Below are positions 10,672 through 58,800 of a DNA stretch of 58,800 nt, one piece after another (position 1 is the first letter of the stretch; each line of letters starts with the position of its first letter). Where the stretch lies: the NCBI GenBank assembly GCA_964645355.1, contig CAZXZU010000003.1, positions 1 to 58,800 on the forward strand, in the 5' to 3' direction. A model generated the notes under the pieces. The model was not told the origin of the DNA, did not search any database, and saw only the letters and a list, made by a program, of their open reading frames with translations. Source of the DNA: an uncultured Heliomicrobium sp. (GTDB lineage: Bacteria > Acidobacteriota > Blastocatellia > RBC074). The position numbers and the translations under genes were made by a program.

Positions 10672-10776
10672 TTGCTTGATTGCCTTTGTATTTGTTGAGT
10701 TGATTACCTTGAAGGCTTCGCAGTATACCCATCGCGTCTGAATTTCAAAACCTGCGTTCGTAGTTCCGCCTTTAGG

Positions 10777-10893: not shown

Positions 10894-10952
10894 CCTTTAG
10901 GTGGCTGCGCGGCTTTTCAGCCGCCTGCAAGCGCGACGAATCTAAAATCAAG

Positions 10953-15094: not shown

Positions 15095-15235
15095 GGCTCC
15101 AGAGGAGCCAACTGTTTATAGCAATCGCGTGGCATCGCCCCCAAGCTCCATCGGAGCGACCTCTGACACAGGCCGCTCCGATGGAGCTTGGGGGCTTGCA
15201 GATTCTCATCTATAAACAGGTCGCGCCGCTGGCGC
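15095..15235. repeat. nested palindromic intergenic element
   Basis: Perfect 22-bp inverted repeat: GCCCCCAAGCTCCATCGGAGCG (15137-15158) with 15174-15195. Outer pair CTGTTTATAG (15112-15121) with CTATAAACAG (15210-15219). Flanking mini-palindromes GGCTCCAGAGGAGCC and GCGCCGCTGGCGC. Confidence 0.8.
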
Positions 15236-27613: not shown

Positions 27614-27726
27614 CGGCCAAAGAGATAGCACAGAACAGCGCAGCGAGGTAGCGCCAACAGCCAATTTGAGTTACAACTTGCCGCCGTCAATCCAACCCAC
27701 TTTGGGTCCATTTTCAGGAAGGTGTT

Positions 27727-29466: not shown

Positions 29467-29799
29467 TTCCGTCCCTGAAAATTTTCCTGAAACGTAATCC
29501 TCAGTCGCGCCTTTCGCTTCGGGATATAGGCACCACCGGATGTTGTGCCTGCAATTATTCGATCTTTCGTATTAGCGGAAAAGCTATTGCCAGTTAATTC
29601 CAACTGCATTATCTTCCCGCCGCCTTAAACCGTCCCCTCACTTTTGTTCTAACAAAGTGCAATCGTTTTCGTTCTTCCGGCCAGCCTTGCGGTCAAAGGC
29701 TGACCGAACAAATCAGTCGTCATTCGCATCCCTCAAAAAAAACGACGACCTGGAAACGTGCAAGCCCCACGCTTGCCTAAATCAGGAGGAAACCTGGAT

Positions 29800-33357: not shown

Positions 33358-33428
33358 GTCGGTAGCCCGCGCGTGAGCAAGGGCTTTTTCACTAAACCCG
33401 GTACCTTCCTTACGGTCGGGCTACTGAC
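33358..33428. repeat. family-A palindromic element, divergent copy with compensatory arm changes
   Basis: GTCGGTAGCCCGCGCGTGAGCAAGGG ... CCGGTACCTTCCTTACGGTCGGGCTACTGAC. GTAGCCCG pairs with CGGGCTAC here, replacing the GTACCGCG/CGCGGTAC pair of the other copies. Confidence 0.7.
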
Positions 33429-33624
33429 ACTGCTGCATTGATCCAAAAAATTCATTGGCAGTGATACCCGTCCTCACGCTTTCACGCTCTTGCGAGTGAG
33501 GCCGGAAAGCGTTGCCCGATGGCGGATGAAGTTCAACAGAAATTTCACCGCTGCCATCAACCTTCAGCCTAAAGAACACCGCCCGCGCGGTGAAACCCAA
33601 AACAATATAAACGGAGAAAATGTC

Positions 33625-35745
33625 ATGAAAGCCAATTACAAAACTCAGCCCAGCAATGCGTGGGAAAAACTGTTTCAAAACTTCAGACGCATCGGATTCG
33701 CAGCGGCAATCCTGATGATTACTGCATTCGCCGCCGGCACATCGCGTGCTGCGGATTATTACCCGGCCACGTCAGCCGATTTGATCCTGGCCATTCAACA
33801 AGCCGATAACACCAGCGTGCCCGATGTCATTCATCTATCAACTTATGGCGTTTACAAACTGACTGCCGCCAATAACGGCGAAAACGGTTTTCCGAAAATC
33901 ACCACCAAGATTCGTATCGTCGGCAACGGCGCTGTCATAGAACGTGACGCCGGCGCTCCGAATTTCCGCTTCTTCGAACTTTATTACACCGGCAATCTGA
34001 CGCTGGAAAATCTGACCTTGCGCGGAGGCAAGACAGCAGGCGGGGGCGGAGCCGCGATCTTCAATGTGGCATCCGAACTGACGCTGCTCAATTCCGTGTT
34101 TGAAAAAAATCTGGTTGACGGCAACTACGTCAACGCCTGTGGTGGCGCGGTTTACAACCATCAAGGCAAAGTCACGATTGACGGCTGCACCTTTCGCAAC
34201 AACACGGCTCCCGGCGGCGGCGGTTTCGCCAGCGACGGCAGTTCAGCCTATCCGCCGGCTTCAACACAAGTGGCGAATGTCACGATTACCAACAGTTCAT
34301 TTGTCTATAACTCGGCAACAATCGCTTATAACAATGCAGGCGGAATGGGCGGCGGATTCATGCTTCGTGGAGCGCATAAGGTAGACGTTACCAATGTCAC
34401 CGTTGCATACAACAAATCAGCCTATATGGGAGGCGGCATCCTGTTGCATACGCTGCAACATAAAGACGATCTTCTGAACCCGCTGCATGCCAAATTCACC
34501 AACCTGACAATTGCCTGGAACCGCGCAACCAGCATGGGAGGCGGCATTTACTGGACAGCTTGCGGCCCATCCTGCCCCATAGTCCTGGAACCCGAAGTCG
34601 CCAATACCGTGATCGCCAACAACATTGCTCCGTCGTACAAAAATTACGACACCAACCACGGCTTCAATTCCAAAGGCCACAATGTGCTTGGCCCTGGCAT
34701 TGGTTCCTTCCTGTTCGGAACCGCGACTTACAACATCAGCGGCACCCTGACCGGATTCGCGCTTGACCCGACCGACAAATTCATCAGCGGCTCACTTTCC
34801 CAACTCAACGGGCTGAGCAGCACCGGCGACGCAGGCGGCGAATCGCTGCGTCCGATGGCACCAGTCAGCACGTCGCTGTTGATTGATAAGGCTGATCCGA
34901 ATTTTTGCCCGGCTAAGGATCAACTCGGTTTTGATCGAGTCGGAACTTGCGACATCGGCGCAATCGAATACCGCGATTGCACGGCTCCGCCAGCCGATAT
35001 GACTGCGTGGTGGCCGTTTGACGAATACTACTTCCTGGAAGATTTCACGACCTGGAGCTTCCTGAATCACGCAAACCCGAACCCGAATGGCCCGTTGCAA
35101 GTGGCGGGTATGGTCGGCAGCGCCGCAAAGTTCACCAATGCCAGCCACGTGCTGGAAGTGCCGAGTCAGGCGGACATCAACCTTTACAACTCTTGCGCGG
35201 TTGACGGTGGAGCGGCATTTTCAATTGACGCCTGGGTGAAGACATCCGCCAGCGGTTTGCAGGTGATTTTGGATAAGCGCCAATCCAACAGTAGCGGTAT
35301 CCAAGGCTATCACCTGTTTATTTACAACGGCAGACTTGGCTTCCAACTGGCGGCGTACGGCGCACCTCACGCCAATTACTTTTCGCCTGTGCCCACGCTT
35401 TCGAACCAGATACCTGATTTGAGCGACAACAAATGGCACTTCGTCGCCATTACAGTTTATGTTCGCTGCCAAAGAAATGGGTCAGCCTTCGAAGGCAAAA
35501 TGTACATTGACGGAAATGAAGTTCAGACATTCCAGCCTGGCGGACAGGATTATTCCAACAACGCGCCATTGCGAATCGGCGGACATTCCTTCAGCCCATG
35601 GGCCTTCTTCAACGGCAGCCTGGATGAGATCGAAATCTTCCAGCGCACGTTGAGTAAGCCTGAGATCGAAGCTCTCTACAACGCGGGCTGGGCAGGCAAA
35701 TGCGGCAAGAAAGACCCGCCATCCTGCTTGCCTGAATGCAAATAA
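33625..35745 (+). CDS. secreted right-handed beta-helix protein with C-terminal LamG/concanavalin-like domain
   Basis: GGAG is upstream of ATG 33625, with an N-terminal TM/signal segment (IGFAAAILMITAFAAGTSRA). Repetitive GGG(A/F)xxN beta-helix rungs are present. The C-terminus FSIDAWVK...DNKWHFVAITV...MYIDGNEV...FNGSLDEIEIFQRTLS is Laminin_G_3-like. Confidence 0.7.
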   Translation: MKANYKTQPSNAWEKLFQNFRRIGFAAAILMITAFAAGTSRAADYYPATSADLILAIQQADNTSVPDVIHLSTYGVYKLTAANNGENGFPKITTKIRIVGNGAVIERDAGAPNFRFFELYYTGNLTLENLTLRGGKTAGGGGAAIFNVASELTLLNSVFEKNLVDGNYVNACGGAVYNHQGKVTIDGCTFRNNTAPGGGGFASDGSSAYPPASTQVANVTITNSSFVYNSATIAYNNAGGMGGGFMLRGAHKVDVTNVTVAYNKSAYMGGGILLHTLQHKDDLLNPLHAKFTNLTIAWNRATSMGGGIYWTACGPSCPIVLEPEVANTVIANNIAPSYKNYDTNHGFNSKGHNVLGPGIGSFLFGTATYNISGTLTGFALDPTDKFISGSLSQLNGLSSTGDAGGESLRPMAPVSTSLLIDKADPNFCPAKDQLGFDRVGTCDIGAIEYRDCTAPPADMTAWWPFDEYYFLEDFTTWSFLNHANPNPNGPLQVAGMVGSAAKFTNASHVLEVPSQADINLYNSCAVDGGAAFSIDAWVKTSASGLQVILDKRQSNSSGIQGYHLFIYNGRLGFQLAAYGAPHANYFSPVPTLSNQIPDLSDNKWHFVAITVYVRCQRNGSAFEGKMYIDGNEVQTFQPGGQDYSNNAPLRIGGHSFSPWAFFNGSLDEIEIFQRTLSKPEIEALYNAGWAGKCGKKDPPSCLPECK

Positions 35746-36091: not shown

Positions 36092-36109
36092 AGCAAACTC
36101 CAAAAACAT

Positions 36110-36287
36110 CTTCCACGAAGTCACACGAAGCAGGCACGAAGAGAAGAAAATCTTTGGACAGGATTGACAGGATTCAACAAGATGAAGATTTCAAACTGAG
36201 TTCAGATCAATCCTGTTCAATCTTGTAAATCCTGTCTACATTCTTCTTTGTCTTTCTTCGTGTTCCCTTCGTGTGACTTCGTGGAAG
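36110..36287. repeat. composite nested palindrome (outer CACGAAG units, inner GACAGGATT units)
   Basis: CTTCCACGAAGTCACACGAAG (36110-36130) is the perfect reverse complement of 36267-36287. Inside, GGACAGGATTGACAGGATT pairs with AATCCTGTTCAATCTTGTAAATCCTGTC. The inner units match those of the element at 57998-58094. Confidence 0.8.
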
Positions 36288-36296
36288 AAAACATCC

Positions 36297-37463: not shown

Positions 37464-37689
37464 GTTGATGACTCCTTACGTTTGGTTTGAATTTTGGGGG
37501 CGAATGCCCGTGCAAATATACATTACCAGCGGCAGAAATGTTCCATCTGCAAAACAAATGTTTCATCCAACCGGGTCAAACCTTGTAATAAAAATCCTGC
37601 CTGACCATAATCCGCGCGCAATCTTCCCTTCCATTTAGCAAACGGGTCACGATGTGAGTTTCAACAGCATCGGCAAACAAATTAAATCG

Positions 37690-37710
37690 CCTGCCTTCGG
37701 GCAGGTTTTG
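37690..37710 (+). promoter_or_regulatory. UUCG-tetraloop hairpin plus U4 in the leader, 13 nt before the PSD1 start codon
   Basis: CCTGCC-TTCG-GGCAGG followed by TTTTG. Confidence 0.4.
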
Positions 37711-37722
37711 CAAACAACCGGC

Positions 37723-41016
<3,294 letters not shown>

Positions 41017-45681: not shown

Positions 45682-47103
45682 ATGAGCTTGAACAACCCCG
45701 ACGAAAAAAACAGTAATGACGTTTCTCGCCGCTGGTTTATCGAACAATGCGGCGTAGGTTTGGGCGCGTTGGCGCTCAATCACTTGCTGGCAAGCGAAGG
45801 TTACGCGCAATCGCAAAACCCGCTGGCTCCTAAAAAGACGCACTTCCCGCCGAAGATCAAGAACGTCATCTATCTGTTTATGGCCGGAGGCCCCAGCCAC
45901 ATAGAAATGTTTGACAACAAACCTTCGCTGGCAAAGTTCGATGGCACTTTGCCACCGCCAGACTTGCTGAAAGGGTATCGAGCGGCGTTCATCAACCCGA
46001 ACTCGAAGCTGTTGGGGCCGAAGTTCAAGTTCGCCAAGCATGGCCAGTCCGGCGCGGAAGTTTCCGAACTGTTGCCGCACACGGCCAAAATTGCCGACGA
46101 CATCACCATCGTCAAAGGCATGGTCAGCGATGCGTTCAATCACGCTCCGGCACAGTTGATGATGAACACGGGTTCGATGATTTTCGGGCGACCGAGTTTT
46201 GGCGCGTGGACGATTTACGGAATGGGCAGCGAAGCCGAAGACCTGCCCGCTTATGTCGTTTTCAGCACCGGCAGCAAAGGCCCAAGCGGCGGCAATTCGT
46301 GTTGGGGCAGCGGATTTCTGCCGACGGTTTATCAGGGAGTCCAATTCCGTAACGTGGGCGATCCGGTGCTTTACCTGTCCAATCCGCGCGGAGTTGACGC
46401 CAAGCTCCAACGCGATTCGCTGGACACGATACAGAAGCTGAACCGCATGCGGCTGGACACGGTCGGCGATCCTGAAATCGCCACGCGCATCAATTCGTTC
46501 GAGATGGCTTACAAGATGCAAACCAGCGCGCCGGAGCTGATGGACTTGGGCAAAGAGCCAAAGCACATTCTGGAAATGTACGGAGCCGAACCGGGCAAAC
46601 CTTCGTTCGCCAATTCGGTTTTGATGGCTCGGCGAATGGTCGAACGCGGAGTGCGCTTCGTCCAGATTTACCACGAAGCCTGGGATCAACACGGTTCGCT
46701 GGTTCGTGACCTGACCAAAAATTGCCTGGACACAGATCAAGCCTGCGCGGCGTTGGTCAAAGATTTGAAGCAACGCGGAATGCTGGACGACACGCTGGTT
46801 ATATGGGGCGGCGAGTTCGGGCGAACGCCTATGGTTCAAGGCGGCAGCGACGGACGCGATCATCACCCGAACGCTTTCACCATGTGGCTGGCGGGCGGAG
46901 GCTTCAAACCCGGCATCACTTACGGCGAAAGCGATGAACTCGGTTTCAACGTCGTCAAAGACCGCGTACACGTTCACGACCTGCACGCGACGCTGTTGCA
47001 CCAACTCGGCTTCGATCACGAAAAACTGACTTATCGTTTTCAGGGGCGCGACTTCCGGCTGACGGACGTTGCCGGATTGGTCGTAGACAAACTGCTGGCT
47101 TAG
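45682..47103 (+). CDS. DUF1501-family (sulfatase-fold) protein with Tat signal
   Basis: [17 protein letters not shown], then [19 protein letters not shown] ... WGGEFGRTP ... GRDHH. Confidence 0.85.
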
Positions 47104-47113
47104 AGGTGAAGCG

Positions 47114-47842
47114 ATGAAACGATGGATTGCAATTCTGTTTGTGATGGTGGCGCTGACCTGCTTGGCCGTTTCGCAGGAAGTGTGGAAGCCGAAGCCCAAG
47201 CGCAGCGATGCTGTAAGAGTTCTGGTTGCTACCGGCGGTCACGATTACGATCCTGAGTTCTATTCCGTTTTCGACGACGAAGCGATTAACGCCAAAGTTG
47301 ATCCTCATCCGCGCGCTTACAGTTACGACATGCGACGGCGCGCCGACGTGCTGGTGATGTACGACACGGCGCAAGCTCTGGAACCGGCGAGACAGAAAAA
47401 CCTGCGCGATTTCGTCGAAAGCGGCAAAGGCGTTGTCGTGCTGCATCACGCCATCTGCACCAACGTCAATTGGCCGTGGTGGTATGAAGAAGTCGTCGGC
47501 GGACGATGGTTGTTTGAACCGGTGGGCGGCAAAGTCGGCAGCTACAAACACGACCTGGATTTGACGATCAAACCGGCGATGCAGCATCCGATCCTGAATG
47601 GCATTTCGACTTTCCGCATTCACGATGAAACTTACAAAGACCTGTGGATTTCGCCGAAGGTCAAAGTGCTGCTGACGACCGACGATAAAACCAGCGACGG
47701 CCCAGTCGCCTGGATCAGCCCTTACGAAAAAGCGCGCGTCGTTTACATCCAGCTTGGCCACGACCGCAACGCGAACCTGAATCCGAACTACCAACGGCTG
47801 GTCAGAAACGCGATTCAGTGGGCGGCGGGAAGATTGAATTGA
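47114..47842 (+). CDS. ThuA-domain protein
   Basis: Signal MKRWIAILFVMVALTCLAVS, then VLVATGGHDYDPEFYSVF ... GVVVLHHA ... DETY, the ThuA-like pattern. Confidence 0.7.
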   Translation: MKRWIAILFVMVALTCLAVSQEVWKPKPKRSDAVRVLVATGGHDYDPEFYSVFDDEAINAKVDPHPRAYSYDMRRRADVLVMYDTAQALEPARQKNLRDFVESGKGVVVLHHAICTNVNWPWWYEEVVGGRWLFEPVGGKVGSYKHDLDLTIKPAMQHPILNGISTFRIHDETYKDLWISPKVKVLLTTDDKTSDGPVAWISPYEKARVVYIQLGHDRNANLNPNYQRLVRNAIQWAAGRLN

Positions 47843-47848
47843 TGAAAG

Positions 47849-48112
47849 TGTGTAGCTGCTCAGCACTTCTTCGTCCCAGCGGGACGGTTGATTTTAGGCA
47901 GGTCGTTTTACGGCCTGCGTGTGACGGTAAAATCATTTGCGTCCCATCGGGACGGCTGATTGGTGGTCAACATTGATTTTATTCGCTAACCAGGAATTCA
48001 GCCGTCCCGACGGGACGCGGCAATCTCTTCGCCATTTTGCAGGCCGTAAAACGACCTGCCTAAATTCAAATGTCCCTACGGGACAAAAAGGTTGAACGGC
48101 AGCAGCCTGCAC
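47849..48112. repeat. long imperfect palindrome (~110-nt arms) containing four GTCCC-NNN-GGGAC mini-hairpins
   Basis: Perfect 25-bp core TTAGGCAGGTCGTTTTACGGCCTGC (about 47895-47919) against its complement at about 48038-48062. CGTCCCATCGGGACGGCTGA against TCAGCCGTCCCGACGGGACG. Outer GTCCCAGCGGGAC and GTCCCTACGGGAC. The flanks GTGTAGCTGCTCAGCAC and GCAGCAGCCTGCAC are also partly complementary. Confidence 0.75.
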
Positions 48113-48193
48113 TGGCCTGAAATAGATGAAGATTTATCTGTCACAAATTTATTGGCTGGCGCGAACCGACAATGCGCATAACGACTTTAAGCC

Positions 48194-48715
48194 ATGAATC
48201 TGCCTGAGTACGAAATTCGCCTTGCCACGTCTGAAGATGTTCTCTTTCTTCAGGACATTGAAAGCGCAGCCGGTGATCTCTTTTTGCAGTTTGAATTCAC
48301 TGCCCACCTGGCTGCCGACTCAACACCGCTCGAAGATTTTTACGAAGCTCTGAAAGACAACCTGCTTTGGTTGGCTGTGTCATCGGGCGGTCACCCAATC
48401 GGGTTCGCTCTGGTTTATATGCTCGAAGGCGCGGCGCATTTGGAAGAGTTGGCCGTTCATCCGGATTACGGACGCCGGGGTATTGGCGAGAAGCTGGTGC
48501 AGGCGGTGATTGACTGGGCGCGATCCGGCAAGATTTCAGCGGTGACGTTGACGACGTTCCGCGACATTCCCTGGAACGCGCCGTTTTACCAAAAGCTGGG
48601 ATTCAGGATTTTAGAAGCGGATGAATTGACGCCGAACCTTGTCAGGATAGTAGACGATGAAGAGAAACGCGGTTTGGCCAGAGAGCTTCGCGTGGTGATG
48701 AGGCGAATCGCGTAA
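48194..48715 (+). CDS. GNAT-family N-acetyltransferase
   Basis: LAVHPDYGRRGIGEKLVQAVIDWA is the acetyl-CoA-binding R/Q-x-x-G-x-G/A motif. Confidence 0.8.
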   Translation: MNLPEYEIRLATSEDVLFLQDIESAAGDLFLQFEFTAHLAADSTPLEDFYEALKDNLLWLAVSSGGHPIGFALVYMLEGAAHLEELAVHPDYGRRGIGEKLVQAVIDWARSGKISAVTLTTFRDIPWNAPFYQKLGFRILEADELTPNLVRIVDDEEKRGLARELRVVMRRIA

Positions 48716-48717
48716 CC

Positions 48718-48744
48718 GCGTTCCCTACCGGTCGCGGTACTGAC
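48718..48744. repeat. family-A palindromic element, single arm, between convergent genes
   Basis: GCGTTCCCTACCGGTCGCGGTACTGAC starts 3 nt after the GNAT stop. Confidence 0.75.
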
Positions 48745-48758
48745 CCAGTTGAGAAGTT

Positions 48759-49676
48759 TCAGCCGCTTTTGGTGATCGCGTTGATTTCGCCGCCGACCAG
48801 AATGGCTATGCCGGTAAAGTAAAACCACAGCATCAGCACCATCACTCCGCCCAACGCGCCGTAAGTCGCGCTGTAATTTCCGAACCGCGAAACGTAATAC
48901 CGAAAGCCAAACGAAATCAGCAGCCAGCAGACCACGGCGAACACCGCGCCGGGCGTGAACCAACGCCAGCGATGTTTGAAGTTCGGCGCGAAGTAGTAAA
49001 TCAAATCAACCGCGATCAATATCAGAATGCTGGCCAGCGGCCATTGAGCAACGCCGAAAACGGTATTGAAGGCTGCGCCTAAGTCGAAGTGGCGCGCGAT
49101 GCTCTGCCCCAGGCTTTTGCCGAAAAAGATCAGCGACAGCGCAGTCAGCACAAAAACCGCCAGGCCGAGCGTCAGCCAGATGGAAAGCAGTTTTTCCCGC
49201 CACCATGAACGCGGCGCAGTGTTTCGGTAAGCTCGATTGATTGAGCCGATGATCGCTTCCATCCCGGCGGACGAAGCCCAAATTGCGATAAGAATGCTGA
49301 AGCTGAGCAAACCGCCTCGCGGTCGTTCGGTGACCTGTTGAAAGGTGGTGTTAATCAGGCGATAAGCATCGGCAGGCAAGACGTTGTTCAACGCGCCCAG
49401 CCAGTAATCCAGCTTGCGCGGAATCGGCAACGGCAGAAAAGCCAGCAGCGCCGTCAGAAAAATCAACAACGGGAATAGAGAAAACAACCAGTAATAGGCA
49501 AGCTGGGCAGAGCGCCCGAAAACGTCGTCTTCGAATATGTTGTCCCAGAGTTGGCGAAAGAATGAGGGAGACGAACGGACGGAGGGACGGAGAGACGGGG
49601 AGACGGGGGGATTATCTCCCTCCGTTCGCCCTGTCTCTCTGTCGCCCAATTTCACTGTCTCTTTTCCGATTATCAC
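48759..49676 (-). CDS. YihY/BrkB-family membrane protein
   Basis: FGRSAQLAYYWLFSLFPLLIFL plus 6 TM segments. The GTG start at 49676 overlaps the upstream stop (GTGA). The first ~38 codons run through a repeat element. Confidence 0.75.
   Translation of the reverse strand: MIIGKETVKLGDRETGRTEGDNPPVSPSLRPSVRSSPSFFRQLWDNIFEDDVFGRSAQLAYYWLFSLFPLLIFLTALLAFLPLPIPRKLDYWLGALNNVLPADAYRLINTTFQQVTERPRGGLLSFSILIAIWASSAGMEAIIGSINRAYRNTAPRSWWREKLLSIWLTLGLAVFVLTALSLIFFGKSLGQSIARHFDLGAAFNTVFGVAQWPLASILILIAVDLIYYFAPNFKHRWRWFTPGAVFAVVCWLLISFGFRYYVSRFGNYSATYGALGGVMVLMLWFYFTGIAILVGGEINAITKSG
49564..49647. repeat. periodic 8-nt-unit element (GGAGGGAC/GGAGAGAC units) at the M36-protein/yihY junction
   Basis: GAGGGAGACGAACGGACGGAGGGACGGAGAGACGGGGAGACGGGGGG ... 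TCTCCCTCCGTTCGCCCTGTCTCTCTGTCGCCC. It shares partial complementarity (CGAACGGA..GGAGGGA with TCCCTCCGTTCG) and its units resemble the right arm of 16996-17078. Confidence 0.6.
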
Positions 49677-52600
49677 TTCAGTTGGATTGTCACTCGATTA
49701 GCTGTCACGCCGCCAACGGTTACGACGACTTCGACGCGGCGAGCTCCCTGTCCGGCCAGAGCCGTCGGGAACTCGACGTTGATTTGATCCAGCCCGGCGA
49801 AGCTGCCTTGCGCCCCGGCGTAAAGCACGTTGGCCGCGCGGCCATCAATCGTCACGGTCACAGATTCGGCGACACCGTTTCCGTCATTCGGATTTGCGGC
49901 GGGGACTCGGCGAACTCCGGTGGCGTAAAGCACCAGAATGTTCGGGCGTCCGTTGACCACGACATCGAACGGCGGTTGTTGGAAATTGATGCCGTCAATC
50001 GTCGTTTGAGCCGCCGCGTCGCCAGTGCCGGAAGCGTTGGCCGTGAAAATGGCAGGCGCAGTTGCGGCAATCTGGATATTTCCCAGCGCGTAACTGCCTT
50101 GCGGATTCGTGACTATGATCGTTGCCGAACCCGGATCAACTCCGACGGGAACGACAAAGTTGATCTGCGTCGGCGAAACGAAAAACAGCGGCGCTGGAAT
50201 TCCGTTGACCGTCAACATGGTGTCGGCCAGGCCGAACGGCAGCGGAATTGATTGAGCGAGTTCGATGCGCGGAGCCAGATTCACTCCGAAAGCGGCGGCA
50301 ATCGAATCCACGGCCAGCGGCCCGACTTTGAAATCGGCGGCGTTGACCGCGGTCAGCGGAGAAGCCTGAATAACACTGATTTGCACGATTTTGACATCGG
50401 CGAGCGTTCCGTCGCTGGCCGTGAAATTAACCGTGATATTGCGGCCAATGTCGGCGGCTGCGGGCGTCCAGCGGAAAGTGCCGCGCGCGCTGTTGTTGGT
50501 GTCGTTGGCAACGGTGAAGTTCGCTCCTGCCGGCAAACCTTCAGCCGTGATCGAAATCGGCACTCCCGAACCCAAATCCTGAGCCGAAACAACGAAGGCC
50601 AGTTCGCGTCCCGGCAAAGCAATTTGCTGAGTGACAGGCACGATCACCAGCGGCGGCTGGTTCGGCGAAATGATGGTCAGGCCGTCCAGTTTGAACCGTT
50701 CGTTGGTGACGACAGTGGTTGTGCCTGTCGAGCCGGTGTTGCCTCCAACTGCGTAAACCCAACCGCCCAGCACGGCGCTGCCCGGACGCGAACGCAGCGT
50801 AGGCAGATTCAACGAAGCATCAGACGGCAGCCAGCGGTCGGCGGCAAAATCGTAAACGTCCACGGTGTTCACCAGCCCGGAGTTGTTTTCGCCGCCGATA
50901 ATCAGCCACAGCACTTTGCCTGAAGCGTCCTGAGCCAGCGCGCTGGTTCCGTAAAAGTGCGCGTTGGGCATAGGCGCAATCAGCGACCATCTTTGAGTGG
51001 TGAAGTCGAAAACTTCGCCTGTCGTCAGCGGGCCGACTCCGCCGACGACATAAAGCTTGCCTCCGACAAAAGCCGATTCGTGAGCGAAGCGCGCCGAATT
51101 CATAGGCGGCAAAGCAGTCCAGGTGTTGGCTTGAATGTTGTAAACCTGAGCGTTGGTTATGCCTCCAATCAGGTCGCTGCCGCCGGTCATAAAGTAACGG
51201 TTGTTTGCCGGGTCCGCGGCCAGAGCGTAAGCGTGAACGCTGACCGGCGGAATGGCGAGCTTGGACCAGGCGTTGGCGGCAATGTCGTAAACGAATTGGC
51301 CTCGGTCAATTTCCACGGCGGGCGTGATGCCGCCGGGCAGATAAATTTTTCCGTTGATGGTCACGGCTCTGCCGGAATTGATCGGAGCAGGCAGCGGCGC
51401 AAGAACTTCCCAGGCCGGTGTTGCAACAGCCGGTTCCAGGCGCTGAACCGTTGTCAGCGCGCTTGCATTGCCGGTATTCGTGCGTCCGCCGATTTGATAA
51501 ATGTATTTGCCGTCGCTGGTTGCAGCCAAACGATTGATGGCGGCGGGCAGCGGCGTTTGAGTTTGCCAGCGGCTTTCTATGATGAAGTCGCTGCCGGACA
51601 AAGTTGTGGTTTCAGCGCCTTCGTCGTCAACGGCGACAATCTGCAAGCGCCCGTTGGCGGTGACGGCGTTCGACGGAATCGTCCAGTTGAAGGATTTGGA
51701 TTCCCCGCCCAGATCAGCGATGTTGGCGATAAGCTGCGGCGTAGTCGCCGTGCTGCGATACAACGCCACCCGATGACGCGCGATTCGCCGATTGTCAGCC
51801 GATTGCCAGCGCAACGTGACGGTCGAGCCGGTGAAAACCCGCTCGCCTCCAGCAGGCGAAAGCACAGACACAGTCGGCGGTGTCAGCGCGGTGTAAGTAA
51901 AACCGCCAATGACCTTCTTTTCAGCCGTGACGGAGTTTCTGACCGTCACGTCAACCGCCGCCGCTGCGGTCGCCGCAGGAGCAATGGCGCGCAACGTGTT
52001 CGAGTTGATGAAAGTTCGCGTCGCCGTAACCGCGCCGAAAAGCACTGTGGTTTCAGGCGAAAAGTTCGACCCGTTGATTGTCACTTGAGCGCCGCCGCGT
52101 ATCGAACCGGAGTTCGGGAAAATCCCAGTCACGTCAGGCGCGCCAACCGTCGAACCATTGACGTAATAAGTGAAAGCGTTGAGCAGCGTCGTCGTTCCGT
52201 AACGAGTTTCGACTCGAACGCTGGCTCTGCCTGCCGGCTGCGCCGGAGTGTTGACGGCGATGGCCGTGCTGCCCAGCGCGCGAACGTTCACTCCCGGCGT
52301 GTTGTTGAAGAAAATCCTGACATCGCCTGCTTCGGTGAAGTTCAAACCGCTGATCGTCACCACTGTGTTTCCGGCTGGCAAACCGGACGCGGGCGTGATG
52401 CCTGTGATGGCCGGAGCCAACGCATTCGGCGGCGGAATAAAAGTCGGGTCTGACGAACGCGCAATCAGTCGAATGTCGTCAATCGTCCAGCCGTCCGCGG
52501 TTCCAACCGAACTGACGCGGAATCGAATTCGCACGCGCGATTGGCCGGCCAGCGCGTCCAGTTTCTGCACCGCCTGATTGAAGGTCGCCAGCGTGCCGGT

Positions 52601-55459
52601 GAAAGCCGTCGCGCGATTCCAGGTCGCGCCGTCGTTGGTTGAAAACTCCACGTTGCCGTAATCGGTTCCGGCTGTTCCAAAGGCATAACGATGAGCGAAA
52701 GTCAGCGTTACTCCCACGGCGCGCGACAGATCGAAAAGCGGCGAAACCAGCGAAGCATTTGTCCCGGCGGCGTAATTGGCGTTCGGGCTGTCAGTCCACG
52801 AACGAGTTCCCGAAGCCGGCACGGTTTCGATAATCGCCCAGGAGTTGGCCGGAGTTCCGCTGACACTCCAACCGGCATTGCCCGCTTCAACGGTGTCGTC
52901 GAAGACAACTTTTTCGCCAACCACGTCGGCTTGCGCGGTGATTTGAACTGCCGTTCCGTTGCCGTTGTTGGCGTCGTCGTAAGTAATGATGATTTTGTCG
53001 CGCGCGCCCAGCGAAGCCTGCAACTGACCATCGCCCGCTGTCGCCGCGCCCGTCACAACTCGCAAACTGGAATTGTAACTGCCCACGCTGACGGCATCCG
53101 GCGTCAGCATCACCATTTCTTCGTCGCCTGTGATTGAGCTTCGGACTTTGGCGCGAATGGTTCCGGTCGCGTTGCGGTCGCCCAACATTATGCGAACGGT
53201 TTCACCCAGCAGGTAAGATTTTTGGTCAAGCTGAACAATGCCCAGATCGCTGCAAAACGGCGGCAAGTCGAAAGCCTGAACCGGGTTGCGGTCAACGGCT
53301 CCAACCGACGAAGCCGAATAACCCAGACCGCGTTTGGCAAACGCCGTCCACATCGCGCATTGGTTCGCGCCTGCGTTGTTTGCCCTGTCGGCGGCCATAA
53401 TCGAATTGCGCGAATCCAGAAACGACGGCGCGGGAGCGGACAACTTCATGCCGTCAACCACCAATTGCAGACTTTGCCGTTGGCCTTCGGCGAAACCCAG
53501 CTTGCGAATCAACTGAGCGCGAACTTCCAGCAACGTGTTGCACCAGACTTCCCCGACTCCGTGCGGAGCCACGCTGGTTGCCACGTCGGCGTACATCAGC
53601 GGATAAACCGTGGTGCTGGTGCTGTAAGGAAAACGGCGAATGCCGCGCGTGAAATTGCCTGTGGCGTATTGGCCTACGGCATAGCTTCCATCCAGATTGT
53701 CGGTTTCGGAAGCCAACAAAACTATGCCGAAATAATCCGACCAGCCTTCGCCCATTTGCTGGAAGCCGCCAAGCTGGCGAACCAGACGAGTGCTTAAACC
53801 GTGCGTCAGTTCGTGGATGATGATGCCCTGGTCGAAATCTCCGTCGCGTTGAGGCGTGCCGCCAGTCCACAAATACATCTGCATTCGACCTGGGTTGCCG
53901 TCAGCCGGAGTGGAGAAATTGGCGTTGTTGGTTCCGCCGCCATCCTGAGCTTCGGCGCGAACCGGGTCATTGCCCAATCCCAGACCGCCGAAATTGCTGG
54001 TCTGGAAATTCCCCGACGCTTCGTTGAAACCGAACAGGTACATAATGTCGTGGTAACGATTCACCCAGTAAAACATATTGGCCAGCGCCGCATTCTGATT
54101 GTCCGGCGTCGTCGGTTCCATTGTCAGATCGAGCGGGAAAGAAAAATTGCTGTCCGGCACAGTCAGCCGAGGCGAATCATCCGGCTGATTGTTGTTGTCA
54201 CGATCCAGGTAAGCGTCGGTATTGTTCGTTGTGAAACTGGTCGGCGGCTGGCCGTTCCACCAATCGTTGCGCGGATCGCTTGACTGATAAATCGCCGTGC
54301 CGTTGAACGGAGTTGCTCGGAACGGCACATCCTGGCGCTGGACGGTTGCCGGATTGCTGCCGGTAACCGGCAAGTTCGGGCGCGGGCTTTCTTTGGTGAA
54401 AACCAGTCCGTGCGGAGTCGGCTGAGCCAACGGGTTCAGAGTCCCGCCTTTAGGCGGAAGCGTTGGGAGCGAACCATTCCGCCTGAAGGCGGGACTACGT
54501 ACTTCTTCTTCAAAACAATACGAAGTCAGATTCCTGCGGAAAAGCAGCGCACCGGTTTCAGCGTCCACTACCATCTGATAAACGTCCGGCGTTTCAGCCA
54601 GCCACATCTCGAATTCCCAAGCCAGTCGCAGTTGATCGTTGAGGGTTGGGAAATAAACCAGCCGAGCTTCAATGTCGCGCTCGAACTTCGCCGACAGCGA
54701 AAGCTTCTGCTTCAAGGCTCGGCCAGCGGCGGCGGTTTTAATCGCAGCGACGTTCGTCGCTTCGACATCGGCGTAAGTCAGCGCCCGGTTAAATGCCGCG
54801 TTGACCGTCAAACGTGGCCGAGCCAGGTTCGCTGCCCGCGCGGCTGACGGCATCAATTCGCCTCCGGCAGTAATCAGCGCGCCGCTGCGGTCGAAGTGAA
54901 AAGCGTACTCGCCCTGAAAAACTTCTATGCCGTTGACTTCCTGCTGCATAAACAGATGCGTCACGCCGTTGTGATCCGTTCGGTAACGGCGCGCCACGCG
55001 CAAACCGTCAACTTCGTCGTCGCCCAGGCGATAAAGGTCATTGTTGGATTTCAAAAAATATCTGGCCCCGGCTTCGACATCGGAAGTGGCTTGAGTCAAA
55101 TCCTGAGTGAAACTGTAAACGCGGCTGGGGGCGTTGGTCAGACTGCTGAATTGAATTTGCGCGCTTGGCCGTTCACGACGCAGCCGCGAATCTCGCGCGG
55201 TGACAAGCTGGCGACCTTCGGCCTCGGCCGCCTTCATCTCGGCTGGCGGCGCGGGCAATGACTGAGACAAACCGGCGCGAATATCAAAGTCTTCTTGTTG
55301 TTGCGGAACGCGCTTTGGCTGTTGGGATTGACGCTGCGCTCCAGCCGTGAAAGAGGCCGTAAAAATCAGCGAGAAAACGCAGACAATGGCGACGAATGTG
55401 GCAAGGTAGAGAGTTGTTCTTTTCATTTGCAGTTTGATGGTGGTTAAGCGCATCAACAA
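49673..55459 (-). CDS. giant secreted multidomain protein: FTP propeptide + M36 (fungalysin-like) metalloprotease + IPT/TIG repeats + Kelch propeller + Ig-like + Solibacter-type C-terminal domain
   Basis: 1928 aa with signal MKRTTLYLATFVAIVCVFSLIF (ATG 55426 is the likely start). FTP-like NGVTHLFMQQEVNGIEVFQGE. Zinc site IIIHELTHG...GEGWSDY. IPT/TIG units: ITGITPASGLPAGNTVVTISGLNF and VTGIFPNSGSIRGGAQVTINGSNF. Kelch-like YQIGGRT... and GKIYLPGG. C-terminal PAIFTANASGTGDAAAQ...YAGAQGSFAGLDQINVEFP. Confidence 0.8.
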   Translation of the reverse strand: MLMRLTTIKLQMKRTTLYLATFVAIVCVFSLIFTASFTAGAQRQSQQPKRVPQQQEDFDIRAGLSQSLPAPPAEMKAAEAEGRQLVTARDSRLRRERPSAQIQFSSLTNAPSRVYSFTQDLTQATSDVEAGARYFLKSNNDLYRLGDDEVDGLRVARRYRTDHNGVTHLFMQQEVNGIEVFQGEYAFHFDRSGALITAGGELMPSAARAANLARPRLTVNAAFNRALTYADVEATNVAAIKTAAAGRALKQKLSLSAKFERDIEARLVYFPTLNDQLRLAWEFEMWLAETPDVYQMVVDAETGALLFRRNLTSYCFEEEVRSPAFRRNGSLPTLPPKGGTLNPLAQPTPHGLVFTKESPRPNLPVTGSNPATVQRQDVPFRATPFNGTAIYQSSDPRNDWWNGQPPTSFTTNNTDAYLDRDNNNQPDDSPRLTVPDSNFSFPLDLTMEPTTPDNQNAALANMFYWVNRYHDIMYLFGFNEASGNFQTSNFGGLGLGNDPVRAEAQDGGGTNNANFSTPADGNPGRMQMYLWTGGTPQRDGDFDQGIIIHELTHGLSTRLVRQLGGFQQMGEGWSDYFGIVLLASETDNLDGSYAVGQYATGNFTRGIRRFPYSTSTTVYPLMYADVATSVAPHGVGEVWCNTLLEVRAQLIRKLGFAEGQRQSLQLVVDGMKLSAPAPSFLDSRNSIMAADRANNAGANQCAMWTAFAKRGLGYSASSVGAVDRNPVQAFDLPPFCSDLGIVQLDQKSYLLGETVRIMLGDRNATGTIRAKVRSSITGDEEMVMLTPDAVSVGSYNSSLRVVTGAATAGDGQLQASLGARDKIIITYDDANNGNGTAVQITAQADVVGEKVVFDDTVEAGNAGWSVSGTPANSWAIIETVPASGTRSWTDSPNANYAAGTNASLVSPLFDLSRAVGVTLTFAHRYAFGTAGTDYGNVEFSTNDGATWNRATAFTGTLATFNQAVQKLDALAGQSRVRIRFRVSSVGTADGWTIDDIRLIARSSDPTFIPPPNALAPAITGITPASGLPAGNTVVTISGLNFTEAGDVRIFFNNTPGVNVRALGSTAIAVNTPAQPAGRASVRVETRYGTTTLLNAFTYYVNGSTVGAPDVTGIFPNSGSIRGGAQVTINGSNFSPETTVLFGAVTATRTFINSNTLRAIAPAATAAAAVDVTVRNSVTAEKKVIGGFTYTALTPPTVSVLSPAGGERVFTGSTVTLRWQSADNRRIARHRVALYRSTATTPQLIANIADLGGESKSFNWTIPSNAVTANGRLQIVAVDDEGAETTTLSGSDFIIESRWQTQTPLPAAINRLAATSDGKYIYQIGGRTNTGNASALTTVQRLEPAVATPAWEVLAPLPAPINSGRAVTINGKIYLPGGITPAVEIDRGQFVYDIAANAWSKLAIPPVSVHAYALAADPANNRYFMTGGSDLIGGITNAQVYNIQANTWTALPPMNSARFAHESAFVGGKLYVVGGVGPLTTGEVFDFTTQRWSLIAPMPNAHFYGTSALAQDASGKVLWLIIGGENNSGLVNTVDVYDFAADRWLPSDASLNLPTLRSRPGSAVLGGWVYAVGGNTGSTGTTTVVTNERFKLDGLTIISPNQPPLVIVPVTQQIALPGRELAFVVSAQDLGSGVPISITAEGLPAGANFTVANDTNNSARGTFRWTPAAADIGRNITVNFTASDGTLADVKIVQISVIQASPLTAVNAADFKVGPLAVDSIAAAFGVNLAPRIELAQSIPLPFGLADTMLTVNGIPAPLFFVSPTQINFVVPVGVDPGSATIIVTNPQGSYALGNIQIAATAPAIFTANASGTGDAAAQTTIDGINFQQPPFDVVVNGRPNILVLYATGVRRVPAANPNDGNGVAESVTVTIDGRAANVLYAGAQGSFAGLDQINVEFPTALAGQGARRVEVVVTVGGVTANRVTIQLK

Positions 55460-55645
55460 GCGCTGAGTTTCTTTTCCGTATTCATCCCAGGTCTGCCTGA
55501 GTATGAACTTTGAATTTGATGCGAAAGCTGTTTGAGATCACAACCGTCTAGGTTCGGACGTTGGCGATTCTAGCTGAGAAGGCAGGTCGGATAGAAGCAT
55601 TTCAAAATGAAATCTTTTGAGTCTTTGACCAAATCGCTCAGGCCA

Positions 55646-55727
55646 GTCAGTACCGCGACCGGTAGGGAGCGTCGTTCTTTTATCTCACCGCACTTGAAAA
55701 CTCGCTCCCTACCGGTCGCGGTACTGA
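55646..55727. repeat. family-A palindromic element, archetype copy (perfect 25-bp arms)
   Basis: GTCAGTACCGCGACCGGTAGGGAGCG (55646-55671) and CGCTCCCTACCGGTCGCGGTACTGA (55703-55727), separated by a 31-nt spacer. Intergenic. Confidence 0.9.
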
Positions 55728-55801
55728 TTCATCGTACCTTTGACCAAAGGGTTCCCGGACGTTAAAACAACTTCTTCAATCTCAACCACGGAGAATCAAC
55801 C

Positions 55802-56701
55802 ATGAAAATTCTGGTCACTGGCGCAACCGGTTTCATCGGCCAGGCTTTATGCAAGCTGCTGGCTGCCGAAGGCCACGAATTCAACGTTCTGTCACGCCGC
55901 CCGGAATCGGTGGCTTTGCCCGACTCAACGGCCTTTCGCTGGAATCCGGAAGCCGAGACTCCGCCAGTTGAAGCCTGGGCCGGCGTCGAAGCCGTCATTC
56001 ATCTGGCCGGAGAACCCGTCGCCGCCAAACGTTGGACTGAAGAACAAAAGCGCCGCATACGCGATTCGCGCGTCGTCGGGACTCGGAATCTGGTTAAAGG
56101 AATGCAGCAAGCCGAACAGCCGGCAAAAGTTTTTATCAGCAGTTCGGCGGTCGGCTTTTACGGCAACCGTGGCGATGAACAAGTGGACGAACGCTCAGCG
56201 CCCGGAACCGGCTTTTTCCCTGACGTATGCACGGCTTGGGAACGCGAAGCGCAAGCCGCCGATCCATTGGGAACCCGCGTTGTGCTTGCTCGCACCGGCG
56301 TTGTGCTTGGCAATGGCGGGATGCTGGAAAAGATTTTGCTGCCCTTCAAGCTGGGCGTCGGCGGCAGGTTGGGCAGCGGCAAACAATGGTTTCCGTGGAT
56401 TCACCTGGACGATATGGTTGGCCTGTTGCACCACGCTCTATTCAACGATCAGGTCAGCGGAGCAATCAACGCAGTCGCGCCCAATTCTGTGACCAACGCG
56501 GAATTCACCAAAACTTTGGGACGGGCGCTGAATCGCCCGACGATCTTCCCTGTCCCGGAATTCGCGCTGCGAATCTTGATGGGAGAACTGGCCAATGCCG
56601 CGTTGGACAGCCAGCGAGTTTTCCCAACAGTGGCGCTGGAAACCGGCTACGAATTCCGTTACGCGGCGCTGCAACCGGCGCTGGATTCATTGCTGCGCTG
56701 A
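55802..56701 (+). CDS. TIGR01777-type SDR/epimerase-family protein (YfcH-like, with DUF1731 C-terminus)
   Basis: MKILVTGATGFIGQALCKLL ... GKQWFPWIHLDD ... INAVAPNSVTNAEFTKTLGRALNRP. Confidence 0.8.
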   Translation: MKILVTGATGFIGQALCKLLAAEGHEFNVLSRRPESVALPDSTAFRWNPEAETPPVEAWAGVEAVIHLAGEPVAAKRWTEEQKRRIRDSRVVGTRNLVKGMQQAEQPAKVFISSSAVGFYGNRGDEQVDERSAPGTGFFPDVCTAWEREAQAADPLGTRVVLARTGVVLGNGGMLEKILLPFKLGVGGRLGSGKQWFPWIHLDDMVGLLHHALFNDQVSGAINAVAPNSVTNAEFTKTLGRALNRPTIFPVPEFALRILMGELANAALDSQRVFPTVALETGYEFRYAALQPALDSLLR

Positions 56702-56791
56702 AGCCCGGTTCGCTGGCCGGAATTCAACACGCAAAGTAGAATGCCGCCGCAAAGTTATTTCACTTCCCAACCCAAACAGGAGATTCACGAA

Positions 56792-57979
56792 ATGCGATTG
56801 AAAAGAGCGATGACTCTGTTGTCACTGCTTGCGCTTGGCGGACTGCTCGGCGCTTGCGAAACAAAATCCGCGGAAATGGGCAAAGCCCCCGCGACTGAAA
56901 CTGCGGCTAAAGGAGCGGAAGCAAAATTGAAGAAGGAAAGTTTTGGCAAATTGCCCGACGGTGCCGAAGTTGACGTTTATACGCTAAGCAACAAAAACGG
57001 CGTCGAGGCAAAAATCACCAACTACGGCGCGACGCTGACTTCGATCAAAGCGCCGGATCGCAACGGCAAATTCGACGACGTCGTGCTCGGTTACGACAGC
57101 ATCGCCGGTTATCTGGACAAGAATCCGCACTTCGGTTCAATCGCCGGACGTTACGCCAACCGAATCGCCAATGGCGAGTTCAAGCTCGGCGGCAAGACTT
57201 ACACACTGGCTAAAAACAACGGCCCAAACCATCTGCACGGCGGGCCGAACGGTTTTTACAAACAACTCTGGACGGCTTCAGATGTGTCAGGCAAAGACGG
57301 ACAAGCCGTCGCTTTCAAATATCTGAGCAAGGACGGCGAGGAAAATTATCCCGGAAACCTGAACGTCACGGTGACTTACACGCTGACGGACAAGAACGAA
57401 TTGAAGATTGATTATCTGGCCACAACCGACAAAGAAACGATCTTGAACCTGACCAATCACGCTTACTTCAATCTGGCCGGAGCCGGCAGCGGCGACATTC
57501 TGAAACATCAATTGAAAATCAACGCCACGCAGTTCACTCCCGTGGACAAGACAATGATTCCAACCGGCAAGCTGGAAAATCTGGCAGGCACGCCAATGGA
57601 TTTTTCCAAGCCAACGGCGATTGGCGAACGGATTGACTCCAAATACGATCAACTGGTTATGGGCGGCGGCTACGATCACAATTACGTGCTGGCAACCGGC
57701 GGCTCGCTGACGGTTCAAGCCGTTGAAGCTTACGACCCTTCGACCGGTCGAGTGATGGAAACCTTCACCGACCAACCGGGAGTGCAGCTTTACACCGCCA
57801 ATTTCCTGGACGGCACGATCACAGGCAAAGGCGGCAAAACCTATCCGCGCCGTTCTGCCTTTTGTTTGGAGACTCAACACTTTCCCGATTCGCCGAACAA
57901 ACCGAACTTCCCGACCGCGGTGCTGAAACCGGGCGACAAGTATCAGACGACGACGATCTATAAATTTTCGGCGCGCTAA
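56792..57979 (+). CDS. galM: aldose 1-epimerase (galactose mutarotase), lipoprotein-type signal
   Basis: AGGAG lies 9 nt upstream and the signal is MRLKRAMTLLSLLALGGLLGAC. Motifs: GRYANRIANGEF.L.GK.Y.L..NNGPNHLHGG, NLTNHAYFNL, FCLETQHFPDSPN. Confidence 0.9.
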   Translation: MRLKRAMTLLSLLALGGLLGACETKSAEMGKAPATETAAKGAEAKLKKESFGKLPDGAEVDVYTLSNKNGVEAKITNYGATLTSIKAPDRNGKFDDVVLGYDSIAGYLDKNPHFGSIAGRYANRIANGEFKLGGKTYTLAKNNGPNHLHGGPNGFYKQLWTASDVSGKDGQAVAFKYLSKDGEENYPGNLNVTVTYTLTDKNELKIDYLATTDKETILNLTNHAYFNLAGAGSGDILKHQLKINATQFTPVDKTMIPTGKLENLAGTPMDFSKPTAIGERIDSKYDQLVMGGGYDHNYVLATGGSLTVQAVEAYDPSTGRVMETFTDQPGVQLYTANFLDGTITGKGGKTYPRRSAFCLETQHFPDSPNKPNFPTAVLKPGDKYQTTTIYKFSAR

Positions 57980-57997
57980 ATTCTGAGCCAAGACATT

Positions 57998-58094
57998 TAG
58001 ACAGGATTGACAGGATTTTCAGGATTGAAGAAAGCAAAGAAGCTATGCGCCTTTTCTTTACTGCCAATCCTGTCAATCTTGTAAATCCTGTCTA
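57998..58094. repeat. periodic 9-nt-unit palindrome (GACAGGATT units); probable galM terminator
   Basis: TAGACAGGATTGACAGGATTTTCAGGATT ... AATCCTGTCAATCTTGTAAATCCTGTCTA. It uses the same unit family as the inner part of 36110-36287. Confidence 0.8.
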
Positions 58095-58199
58095 CTATTT
58101 TGTCTGGCTTGCATCAACCAAATCGCACGATTAAGATGCGCCTGCGTTTGGAGGCCGTCAATCTTTTGGCATCAAAACTCCGGCGCATCGTTACATTCA

Positions 58200-58445
58200 A
58201 TGGCAAATCGCATCCTGGTAGAAATCAAATCTCGCAACGAATTCTGGCGCAACGCGGTGATGGTCGAATGGGACTATCAGTTTCCGCAGCGAAAGCTGGG
58301 AGCCGAAGCGCAGAACTTTTACCTGATTGAAGAAACCTGGCTGGAAGATTTACAGCGAGTCGCCGCTCAATGCTTTTCCGTGGCATTACCGGCTCCGCTA
58401 AATCCGGGACGCCGACAGTTGTTTCGCCGATTGCTGGCCAGATAA
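58200..58445 (+). CDS. hypothetical small protein (81 aa)
   Basis: ORF only. There is no obvious SD sequence and no recognisable motif. Confidence 0.25.
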   Translation: MANRILVEIKSRNEFWRNAVMVEWDYQFPQRKLGAEAQNFYLIEETWLEDLQRVAAQCFSVALPAPLNPGRRQLFRRLLAR

Positions 58446-58476
58446 TTGTTCAGACTTGTTGGAGAAGCGCCACCAA

Positions 58477-58558
58477 TCAGTACCGCGACCGGTAGGGAGC
58501 GAGTACACACAAGTGGCCAATTGAAGAAAACCGCGCTCCCTACCGGTCGCGGTACTGA
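58477..58558. repeat. family-A palindromic element (perfect 25-bp arms)
   Basis: TCAGTACCGCGACCGGTAGGGAGCG (58477-58501) and CGCTCCCTACCGGTCGCGGTACTGA (58534-58558), separated by a 32-nt spacer. Confidence 0.9.
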
Positions 58559-58608
58559 CTCGACTGAACCAGACACTAAAACAATTTCCGAGAGGGACAA
58601 TCGCTCAA

Positions 58609-58800
58609 ATGACAAAGAACCTGATCAAAATGACTATCGCTGTTGCCGCCGCAGCCTTTGTGCTCGGCTCTACGCTGACCACCAACGCTTATCCGCCGTT
58701 TCTGAAAAAATCCCAGAAGTTCGGCGCTAAAGATTGCACGTTCTGCCACAAAGAAGCCGAAGGCGGCGAAGGTTGGAACGACCGTGGCAATTGGCTGATC
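58609..58800 (+). CDS. secreted c-type-cytochrome-like protein, 5' part only (runs off window end)
   Basis: My translation from ATG 58609 is MTKNLIKMTIAVAAAAFVLGSTLTTNAYPPFLKKSQKFGAKDCTFCHKEAEGGEGWNDRGNWLI. It has a signal peptide and a CxxCH haem motif (CTFCH) and is open to the window edge. Confidence 0.5.
   Translation, partial: MTKNLIKMTIAVAAAAFVLGSTLTTNAYPPFLKKSQKFGAKDCTFCHKEAEGGEGWNDRGNWLI

Follow-up and report, generated by a model that had tools for sequence, protein, structure and literature searches.

The window analysed here, a 58,800-nt stretch of DNA from an uncultured Heliomicrobium sp. (contig CAZXZU010000003.1, positions 1-58,800), carries a short palindromic element between two divergent genes at 55646-55727, and the same element recurs at six further places. 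What kind of element this is, and which activity dispersed it, is the question that the locus raises. The elements are most probably REP-like units and REPIN-like doublets of an Acidobacteriota Y1 (HUH-tyrosine) single-stranded DNA transposase system of the class 3 TnpAY1 kind. The novelty lies in the sequence family and in its occurrence in Blastocatellia; the kind of system is already described.

The palindromic family in the window

A search of the window with the arm GTCAGTACCGCGACCGGTAGGGAGCG, allowing up to three mismatches, returned seven matches, at 23117(-), 40223(-), 48719(-), 55646(+), 55703(-), 58476(+) and 58534(-), against a mean of 0 in 100 dinucleotide-preserving shuffles. A 12-nt core of GTCAGTACCGCGACCGGTAGGGAGCG returned the identical seven sites. 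An inverted-repeat scan identified the paired arms at 27446-27471/27488-27513 (26 nt, 96%), at 55647-55671/55703-55727 and 58477-58501/58534-58558 (each 25 nt, 100%), and at 40157-40187/40223-40253 (77%, a hetero-combination). Reading the sequence directly showed the diverged doublet (33358-33428) and, as single arms, 23117-23142 and 48718-48744. The resulting seven loci are:

23117-23142 (-): single arm with one mismatch, within the FG-GAP/ASPIC-UnbV ORF 22663-24483 (-)
27446-27513: full doublet, subtype 2/subtype 2, 26-nt arms with the foot ACGGTA replacing TCAGTA, 16-nt spacer
33358-33428: diverged doublet, intergenic, flanked by ORFs for an S8 protease (29758-33021, +) and a LamG-domain protein (33490-35745, +)
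40162-40248: 87-nt hetero-doublet, left arm subtype 2 and right arm subtype 1, within ORF 37654-41016 (+)
48718-48744 (-): single arm with one mismatch in the gap between two convergent ORFs, GNAT acetyltransferase (48194-48715, +), whose stop lies 3 nt before the arm, and BrkB family (48759-49676, -), whose end is 15 nt away
55646-55727: full doublet, subtype 1/subtype 1, perfect 25-bp inverted arms, 31-nt spacer, flanked by two divergently starting ORFs, M36 peptidase (49673-55459, -) and epimerase (55802-56701, +)
58477-58558: full doublet, subtype 1/subtype 1, perfect 25-bp inverted arms, 32-nt spacer, 32 nt 3' of the small ORF 58200-58445

A preliminary description of the window had reported seven loci of this family, perfect 25-bp inverted repeats at 55.6k and 58.5k, spacers of about 16-34 nt, two arm subtypes, a chimera of subtype 2 and subtype 1 at 40.1k, and four stop-free reading frames out of six per arm, encoding peptides such as SVPRPVGS. 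All of these features were recovered, the reading frames by inspection of the sequence, with spacers between paired arms measuring 16-35 nt.

An inverted pair of arms can fold as a stem of 25-30 bp. Folded as single-stranded DNA, the doublets reach -34 to -37 kcal/mol at z values near -10: -34.5 kcal/mol (z = -11) for 55646-55727, -35 kcal/mol (z = -9.4) for 58477-58558 and -36.8 kcal/mol (z = -10.4) for 27446-27513. The diverged copy at 33358-33428 is weaker (-18.8 kcal/mol, z = -3.4); in it, compensatory substitutions in both arms preserve the inter-arm stem as well as the intra-arm stem, with swaps at 7/26 and 9/24.

The window also contains numerous palindromes and heptamer-repeat elements of other kinds, mostly intergenic and unrelated to this family. 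Their units include CGGAA[AC]AA, AAAGGCA, CAGGATT and GCAGAG-rich sequences, together with a pair of 54-nt arms, and they lie at:

4344-4434
10766-10904
15096-15235
24372-24473, overlapping the N-terminus of the FG-GAP ORF
25868-25957
36109-36288
47865-48092
57998-58094

A further palindrome with 25-nt arms (AGTCCCGCCTTTAGGCGG...) at 54440-54496 lies in the 1928-aa M36 peptidase ORF (49673-55459, -), between the propeptide and catalytic domains, and looks like an in-frame insertion of another repeat family. In the methyltransferase ORF 7507-8667, the Pfam Methyltransf_31 match falls in two stretches (58-127 being the best), and this domain may be interrupted by some insert.

Copies in independent assemblies

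Window positions 54734-57059 and 46596-49081 are 99.9-100% identical to contigs of independent assemblies from two replicate Hainich groundwater samples. The 55646-55727 copy was found in assembly L115, and the 48718-48744 arm is identical in L196 and L197. Since the 55.6k and 48.7k copies thus recur in three independent short-read assemblies of one groundwater population, that of well H51, they are not assembly artefacts, a concern that the preliminary description had raised. Only two mismatches separate the window from L115 over 2326 nt, both of them within 55646-55727 (spacer and right arm, one each). No presence/absence polymorphism of the copies was observed among these near-identical assemblies (exact-protein look-ups, single population).

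Structure of the arm

Comparison of arms across many genomes defined a unit of ~27 nt, consisting of a 5' foot, (G)TCAG(T/A)A, and an 8-bp hairpin closed by a GGTA loop, CCGCGACC-GGTA-GGGAGCGG. The loop variants GTAA, GTCA and GTGA are rarer than GGTA, and the foot and the GGTA loop are conserved in many species. Arms occur singly or as REPIN-like inverted pairs.

The intra-arm hairpin is supported by covariation. In 107 distinct arms it scored 0.333 versus 0.135 for shuffled arms, a value reached in 0 of 500 shuffles, and it contained 91 double-sided changes versus 30 expected; slid-register controls scored 0.05-0.10. Taking the T of TCAG as the start of the count, positions 13 and 20 of the arm show covariation (G-C, C-G and A-T). 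The two middle stem pairs form a G.A + A.G tandem mismatch in the subtypes of the window and C-G + T.G in other lineages. A mini-hairpin proposed earlier from the window, TACCG-CGAC-CGGTA, was not supported: its TACCG/CGGTA stem scored 0.058 versus 0.051 for shuffled arms, 103 of 500 shuffles scoring as high, and showed no covariation above control, the hairpin described above being supported instead.

Distribution in other genomes

Doublets were sought in one genome per species with the pattern TCAGTACCGCG-N38-68-CGCGGTACTGA. This gave at least 109 loci, spread over at least 34 assemblies; the family is therefore not confined to the window, and the matches listed are nearly all labelled Blastocatellia, Pyrinomonadaceae or Acidobacteriota. 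By blastn, the window overlapped none of the genome contigs with these loci that were compared with it. Against seven loci in the 58.8 kb of the window, L112 has 12 arms over 19.7 kb, and among metagenome loci L174 (1.6 kb) and L166 (7.6 kb) reach as many as 21.

Doublets range from 65 to 88 nt in size, with a bimodal distribution of lengths at 65-69 nt and 80-83 nt. The two arms of one doublet differ at no more than one of 14 variable positions in 77 of 115 doublets, and the pairing of subtype 1 with subtype 2, as seen in the window, recurs in ~13 doublets from several assemblies. The whole doublet including its loop is conserved in some lineages, as illustrated by GGGTCAATTAACAAACCC, which was found in both orientations in SMAG_U3370 and SMAG_U3303; spacers are also conserved among some MFD06229 copies. 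No target-site duplication was found in 138 doublets, which gave just three weak matches of 2-4 nt. The 3 nt preceding TCAG are purine-rich.

Several metagenome-assembled genome records that contain the repeat are labelled Heliomicrobium, Clostridia or Phycisphaerales (L002, L010, L011, L014, L018, L026, L030, L032, L039, L066 and others). The Firmicutes labels on repeat-bearing contigs seem to reflect wrongly assigned bins. Those naming Planctomycetota, a phylum in which class 3 genes have been reported, may be genuine.

A Y1 transposase gene flanked by arms

The preliminary description had stated that the window holds no RAYT or other transposase. In agreement with this, no Y1 transposase was found by phmmer among window ORFs of at least 70 aa, and none of 40 main ORFs had a transposase domain by Pfam; for this genome, the association with a Y1 gene therefore rests on homology with other genomes. 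The search for a RAYT-like tnpA elsewhere, as had been suggested, was successful in related Acidobacteriota, where arms flank a Y1 (IS200-like) gene on both sides. In L063, a Pyrinomonadaceae MAG, a 167-aa ORF is bracketed by full doublets 6 nt upstream and 3 nt downstream, whose arms differ from subtype 1 of the window solely at the covarying pair. Genes P0064, P0060 and P0005, on long contigs, are likewise bracketed by inverted arms.

This arrangement was consistently observed among 80 metagenome loci of the Y1 gene. Upstream of the gene, an arm was present within 260 nt in 69 of 71 cases; downstream, one in the opposite orientation was present within 300 nt in 68 of 72. By our own estimate, the chance rate is ~7%. 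Protein clusters at 70% identity coincide with arm sequence types. No tnpB was seen beside the Y1 gene in four loci with called genes. Many Y1 genes, for example at L158, L144, L174 and L190, have head-to-tail arrays beside them, with up to 5-6 arms on one side, spaced ~40-65 nt apart and all directed towards the gene. The gene between the two doublets of L059 encodes a peptidoglycan-binding protein and was rejected as a transposase candidate.

The L063 ORF matches Pfam Y1_Tnp at 34.7 bits (cut-off 23) and stays below the NCBIfam cut-offs for REP_Tyr_transpos (25.4 bits versus 80) and IS200 (30 bits versus 55). A word-indexed search gave 1555 homologues of it, and a full profile search gave 3372 clusters (50% identity). 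The typical product in related Acidobacteriota is a HUH-Y1 transposase-like protein of ~169 aa, with an invariant RTNHVH (HUH) motif, an invariant Tyr motif YV[IL]NGQ that includes invariant Y156 and Q161, and a conserved N-terminus, WNDT..YLITFRCYGTWLHGD. Neither a sequence search nor a profile search of the PDB with this protein gave a significant match, and 4ER8 was not found by them, so a fold search was needed. Using an AlphaFold model (pLDDT 81), the top 30 PDB matches were all TnpA of IS608, ISDra2 or IS200, or the E. coli RAYT 4ER8. By its motifs and predicted fold, the arm-flanked protein is a HUH-Y1 enzyme.

Copies inside genes

Three of the seven window copies lie inside coding sequences. 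The hetero-doublet at 40162-40248 sits in frame in the PSD1 (DUF1553) domain of a PSCyt1/PSCyt2/PSD1 protein, the Pfam PSD1 match being split in two stretches. At the insertion site, 93 of 121 homologues have a 3-aa linker instead; the other 28 proteins, that of the window included, hold unrelated inserts in this loop, some of which resemble translations of other repeat families. Given this combination of short linkers and varied inserts, the PSD1 loop is an insertion-tolerant hot spot. The same DUF1553 protein contains ESAIRNPQSAIQQ, which resembles a heptamer-repeat peptide, near residue 155 of ORF 37654-41016 (window ~38100-38140). In homologues P0124, P0128, P0129 and P0137, the peptide NPQSAIRNPQS occupies the loop in which the family sits in the window, so that a single tolerant loop seems to have been used by several repeat families.

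The single arm at 23117-23142 lies in frame in the FG-GAP/UnbV protein, to which it adds ~9 residues (VSTATGRQR). Among 121 homologues, 119 have no such insert; the exception, P0249 (76% identical), carries at this position an insert resembling a diverged arm. The doublet at 27446-27513 falls within the alpha/beta hydrolase ORF 25967-27664 (-), just past a predicted signal peptide. It is placed inside the coding sequence because a signal-peptide-like start lies upstream, and on this reading of the sequence it would be truly intragenic.

Of 104 doublets from other genomes, 11 are enclosed by an ORF reaching at least 60 codons on each side, and ~90% lie outside long ORFs. Judging by the translations, the host ORFs include two SUMF1-like paralogues, a DmpA-like peptidase and a UvrD-like helicase. 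The SUMF1/FGE-like paralogues are on different contigs of one MAG (MFD06229.bin.2.137) and carry a doublet at the same codon position:

L020, 1184-1266: doublet of 83 nt
L109, 439-506: doublet of 68 nt

The peptides encoded by the arms recur as SVPRxVxS...LxTxRGTD or ISTASGSER...LATARGTD. That the class 3 Y1 system is an active, RPE-like remodeller of proteins, its units and other repeat families of these genomes repeatedly entering tolerant surface loops such as that of PSD1 in frame and the arm-encoded peptides being retained for a function, is a speculative extension that we consider doubtful.

Comparison with known systems

Class 3 TnpAY1 proteins were defined by Quentin et al. 2018 by NHVH and Y----Q motifs, a length of ~155-178 aa and extended N-terminal conservation, in a study (BMC Genomics 19:475) that rested on 24 proteins and manual inspection. 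The class occurs in Planctomycetes, Acidobacteria and Proteobacteria, and its genes have on their flanks atypical hairpins whose foot reads CnGA, with ~600 copies reported in Solibacter usitatus (PMC6006769). The class was said to resemble both IS and REPtron and was flagged as rare, possibly intermediate between IS200-type IS and domesticated REP systems, and transposition, binding or cleavage was demonstrated for none of its proteins (PMC6006769). Di Nocera et al. 2013 likewise noted, in Acidobacteria, a group of tyrosine transposases with inverted repeats on their flanks (PMC3733652).

The Y1 protein described here matches the published description of class 3 in its NHVH and Y----Q motifs, its length of about 170-178 aa, N-terminal conservation and occurrence in Acidobacteria. 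Its gene has several flanking hairpins, as in class 3, and the CAGA foot of the GTCAGAACC... variants and of other arms fits CnGA; the foot is CAGT in the window and in many further arms. The two differ in the fifth residue of the Tyr motif, published as YV[VI][AENY]EQ and found here as YV[IL]NGQ with G, and in size, 24 proteins having been published versus 3372 clusters at 50% identity here. The covarying hairpins, the REPIN-like doublets, the co-clustering of protein and arm and the in-frame gene copies go beyond the class 3 description. By published motifs, with one Tyr-motif residue differing, the family fits the class 3 signature and can provisionally be set beside class 3. The REP/RPE-like behaviour proposed in the preliminary description was thus upheld, with the refinement that a matching kind, class 3 TnpAY1 with its CnGA-foot hairpins, had already been published (PMC6006769).

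A short hairpin with a conserved 5' foot, singlets alongside inverted doublets, a Y1-like gene flanked by the units, the lack of target-site duplication and the conservation of the whole doublet in some lineages are all shared with the REP/REPIN-RAYT systems of Proteobacteria, which were reportedly treated by Nunvar in 2010 and by Bertels and Rainey in 2011, and are represented structurally by the E. coli RAYT 4ER8. The recurring hetero-pairs of two unit types resemble the Y and Z REPs of E. coli BIMEs. The family nevertheless departs from canonical REPs in its foot, (G)TCAG(T/A)A rather than GT[AG]G, with GTAG sitting at the junction of the loop and the 3' stem, and in its location: canonical REPs are extragenic, whereas three of seven window copies, and maybe ~10% of doublets elsewhere, are intragenic. 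The protein departs from class 2 RAYTs in that it does not reach the NCBIfam RAYT cut-off and in its predicted fold, which is no closer to RAYT than to IS200 TnpA. On foot, curated RAYT model and extragenic location, the family does not qualify as canonical REP.

As in REPINs, two inverted units form one long hairpin. The evidence for copying of the doublet as a unit is mixed, spacers being conserved in SMAG_U3370, SMAG_U3303 and some MFD06229 copies and unrelated between the two perfect doublets of the window at 55.6k and 58.5k; the unrelated spacers make these two a poor fit to simple whole-doublet copying. The co-clustering of protein clade and arm type would be compatible with a single-copy, vertically inherited transposase gene as in REPIN systems. 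With IS200/IS605 elements the system shares the HUH-Y1 fold, with IS608 and ISDra2 TnpA as the best structural matches, as well as hairpin ends and insertion without duplication. It differs from them in that the ends are inverted copies of one unit and in that a great many units stand dispersed with no gene between them.

Alternative explanations

The elements might instead be sites maintained by the host, either as hairpins at transcript 3' ends or for mRNA stability or as nucleoid or topoisomerase binding sites, with the Y1 gene being incidental or domesticated. REP and BIME elements of E. coli have host roles of the transcript-end, stability and protein-binding type. The very stable stems reported above, the location of two window copies (48718 and 58477) just past gene ends, and the conservation of foot and GGTA loop across many species would agree with such a role. 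A terminator consensus scan, however, did not call the elements, because no T run follows them, and its total number of calls equalled the shuffle expectation; moreover, one copy lies in a divergent promoter region and three lie inside genes. A host-site origin of this sort is unlikely, although it is compatible with the Y1-system explanation, the two not being exclusive.

The Rfam search that the preliminary description had proposed gave a tRNA as the sole match over the whole window at the gathering threshold, and thus no family for the element; positions 55500-58800, scanned in E-value mode, gave merely sub-threshold matches to miRNA-precursor hairpin models. CRISPR arrays and integron attC sites were considered and rejected, the former for lacking regular unique-sequence spacers and cas genes, the latter for lacking cassette arrays and the R/L box consensus.

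A second alternative is that these are palindromes resembling the RPEs of Rickettsia, having no transposase of their own and acting mainly as in-frame peptide modules. RPEs are 100-150 bp long and occur in a phylum other than Acidobacteriota, and we know of no dedicated transposase for them. Like RPEs, copies of the present family are found in frame in real genes, where they add a peptide segment; this location, typical for RPEs, applies to three of seven copies in the window and to at most 11 of 104 doublets elsewhere (in the SUMF1-like, DmpA-like and UvrD-like genes), and peptides of the SVPRxVxS...LxTxRGTD type recur. Against this, the copies are mostly intergenic, with ~90% of doublets elsewhere outside long ORFs, the arms bracket a dedicated Y1 gene, and there is no sign of sequence kinship to RPE families and no Rfam match. 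In-frame copies have also been reported for ordinary REP systems (PMC3733652, PMC6006769), with REPs inside genes described in several species (PMC3733652). We regard the RPE-like explanation as quite improbable.

Least tenable is the view that the elements are MITEs of a conventional DDE-type insertion sequence with the 25-nt arms as terminal inverted repeats, which would suit the inverted ends, the 65-88 nt size and the dispersal but is largely refuted, and is now barely credible, given the lack of target-site duplication noted above, the absence of a DDE transposase between arm pairs in the loci inspected, single arms that are covarying hairpins unneeded by DDE terminal repeats, and arms that flank a Y1 transposase gene; the possibility, raised at the outset, that the motif is the terminal repeat of a known IS is answered in the same way for DDE elements.

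Proposed mechanism and implications

Under the favoured explanation, a class 3-type Y1 transposase system, single-stranded DNA would be bound by the Y1 protein at the arm hairpin, in the manner of IS608 TnpA and the E. coli RAYT. Cutting and rejoining by the protein close to the foot would then mobilise single arms or doublets and leave no target duplication, and the window copies would be non-autonomous products of a Y1 gene located elsewhere in their own genome. Copies would persist in intergenic DNA and, if their length and frame permit it, inside genes too, which would thereby gain surface-loop peptides of 9-29 aa.

To our knowledge, class 3 Y1 transposases have had no experimental follow-up since 2018. 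The class 3-type family found here is large, with its 3372 clusters at 50% identity, and is common in soil and groundwater Acidobacteria. The DNA partner is a precisely defined and strongly covarying hairpin, and the partner protein is therefore predictable; together, the hairpin units and the Y1 proteins provide concrete substrates for the biochemistry of how such systems move. A notable share of the copies survive in frame in genes, which explains odd low-complexity peptides (…SVPRAVAS…, …LATARGTD…) in Acidobacterial proteins.
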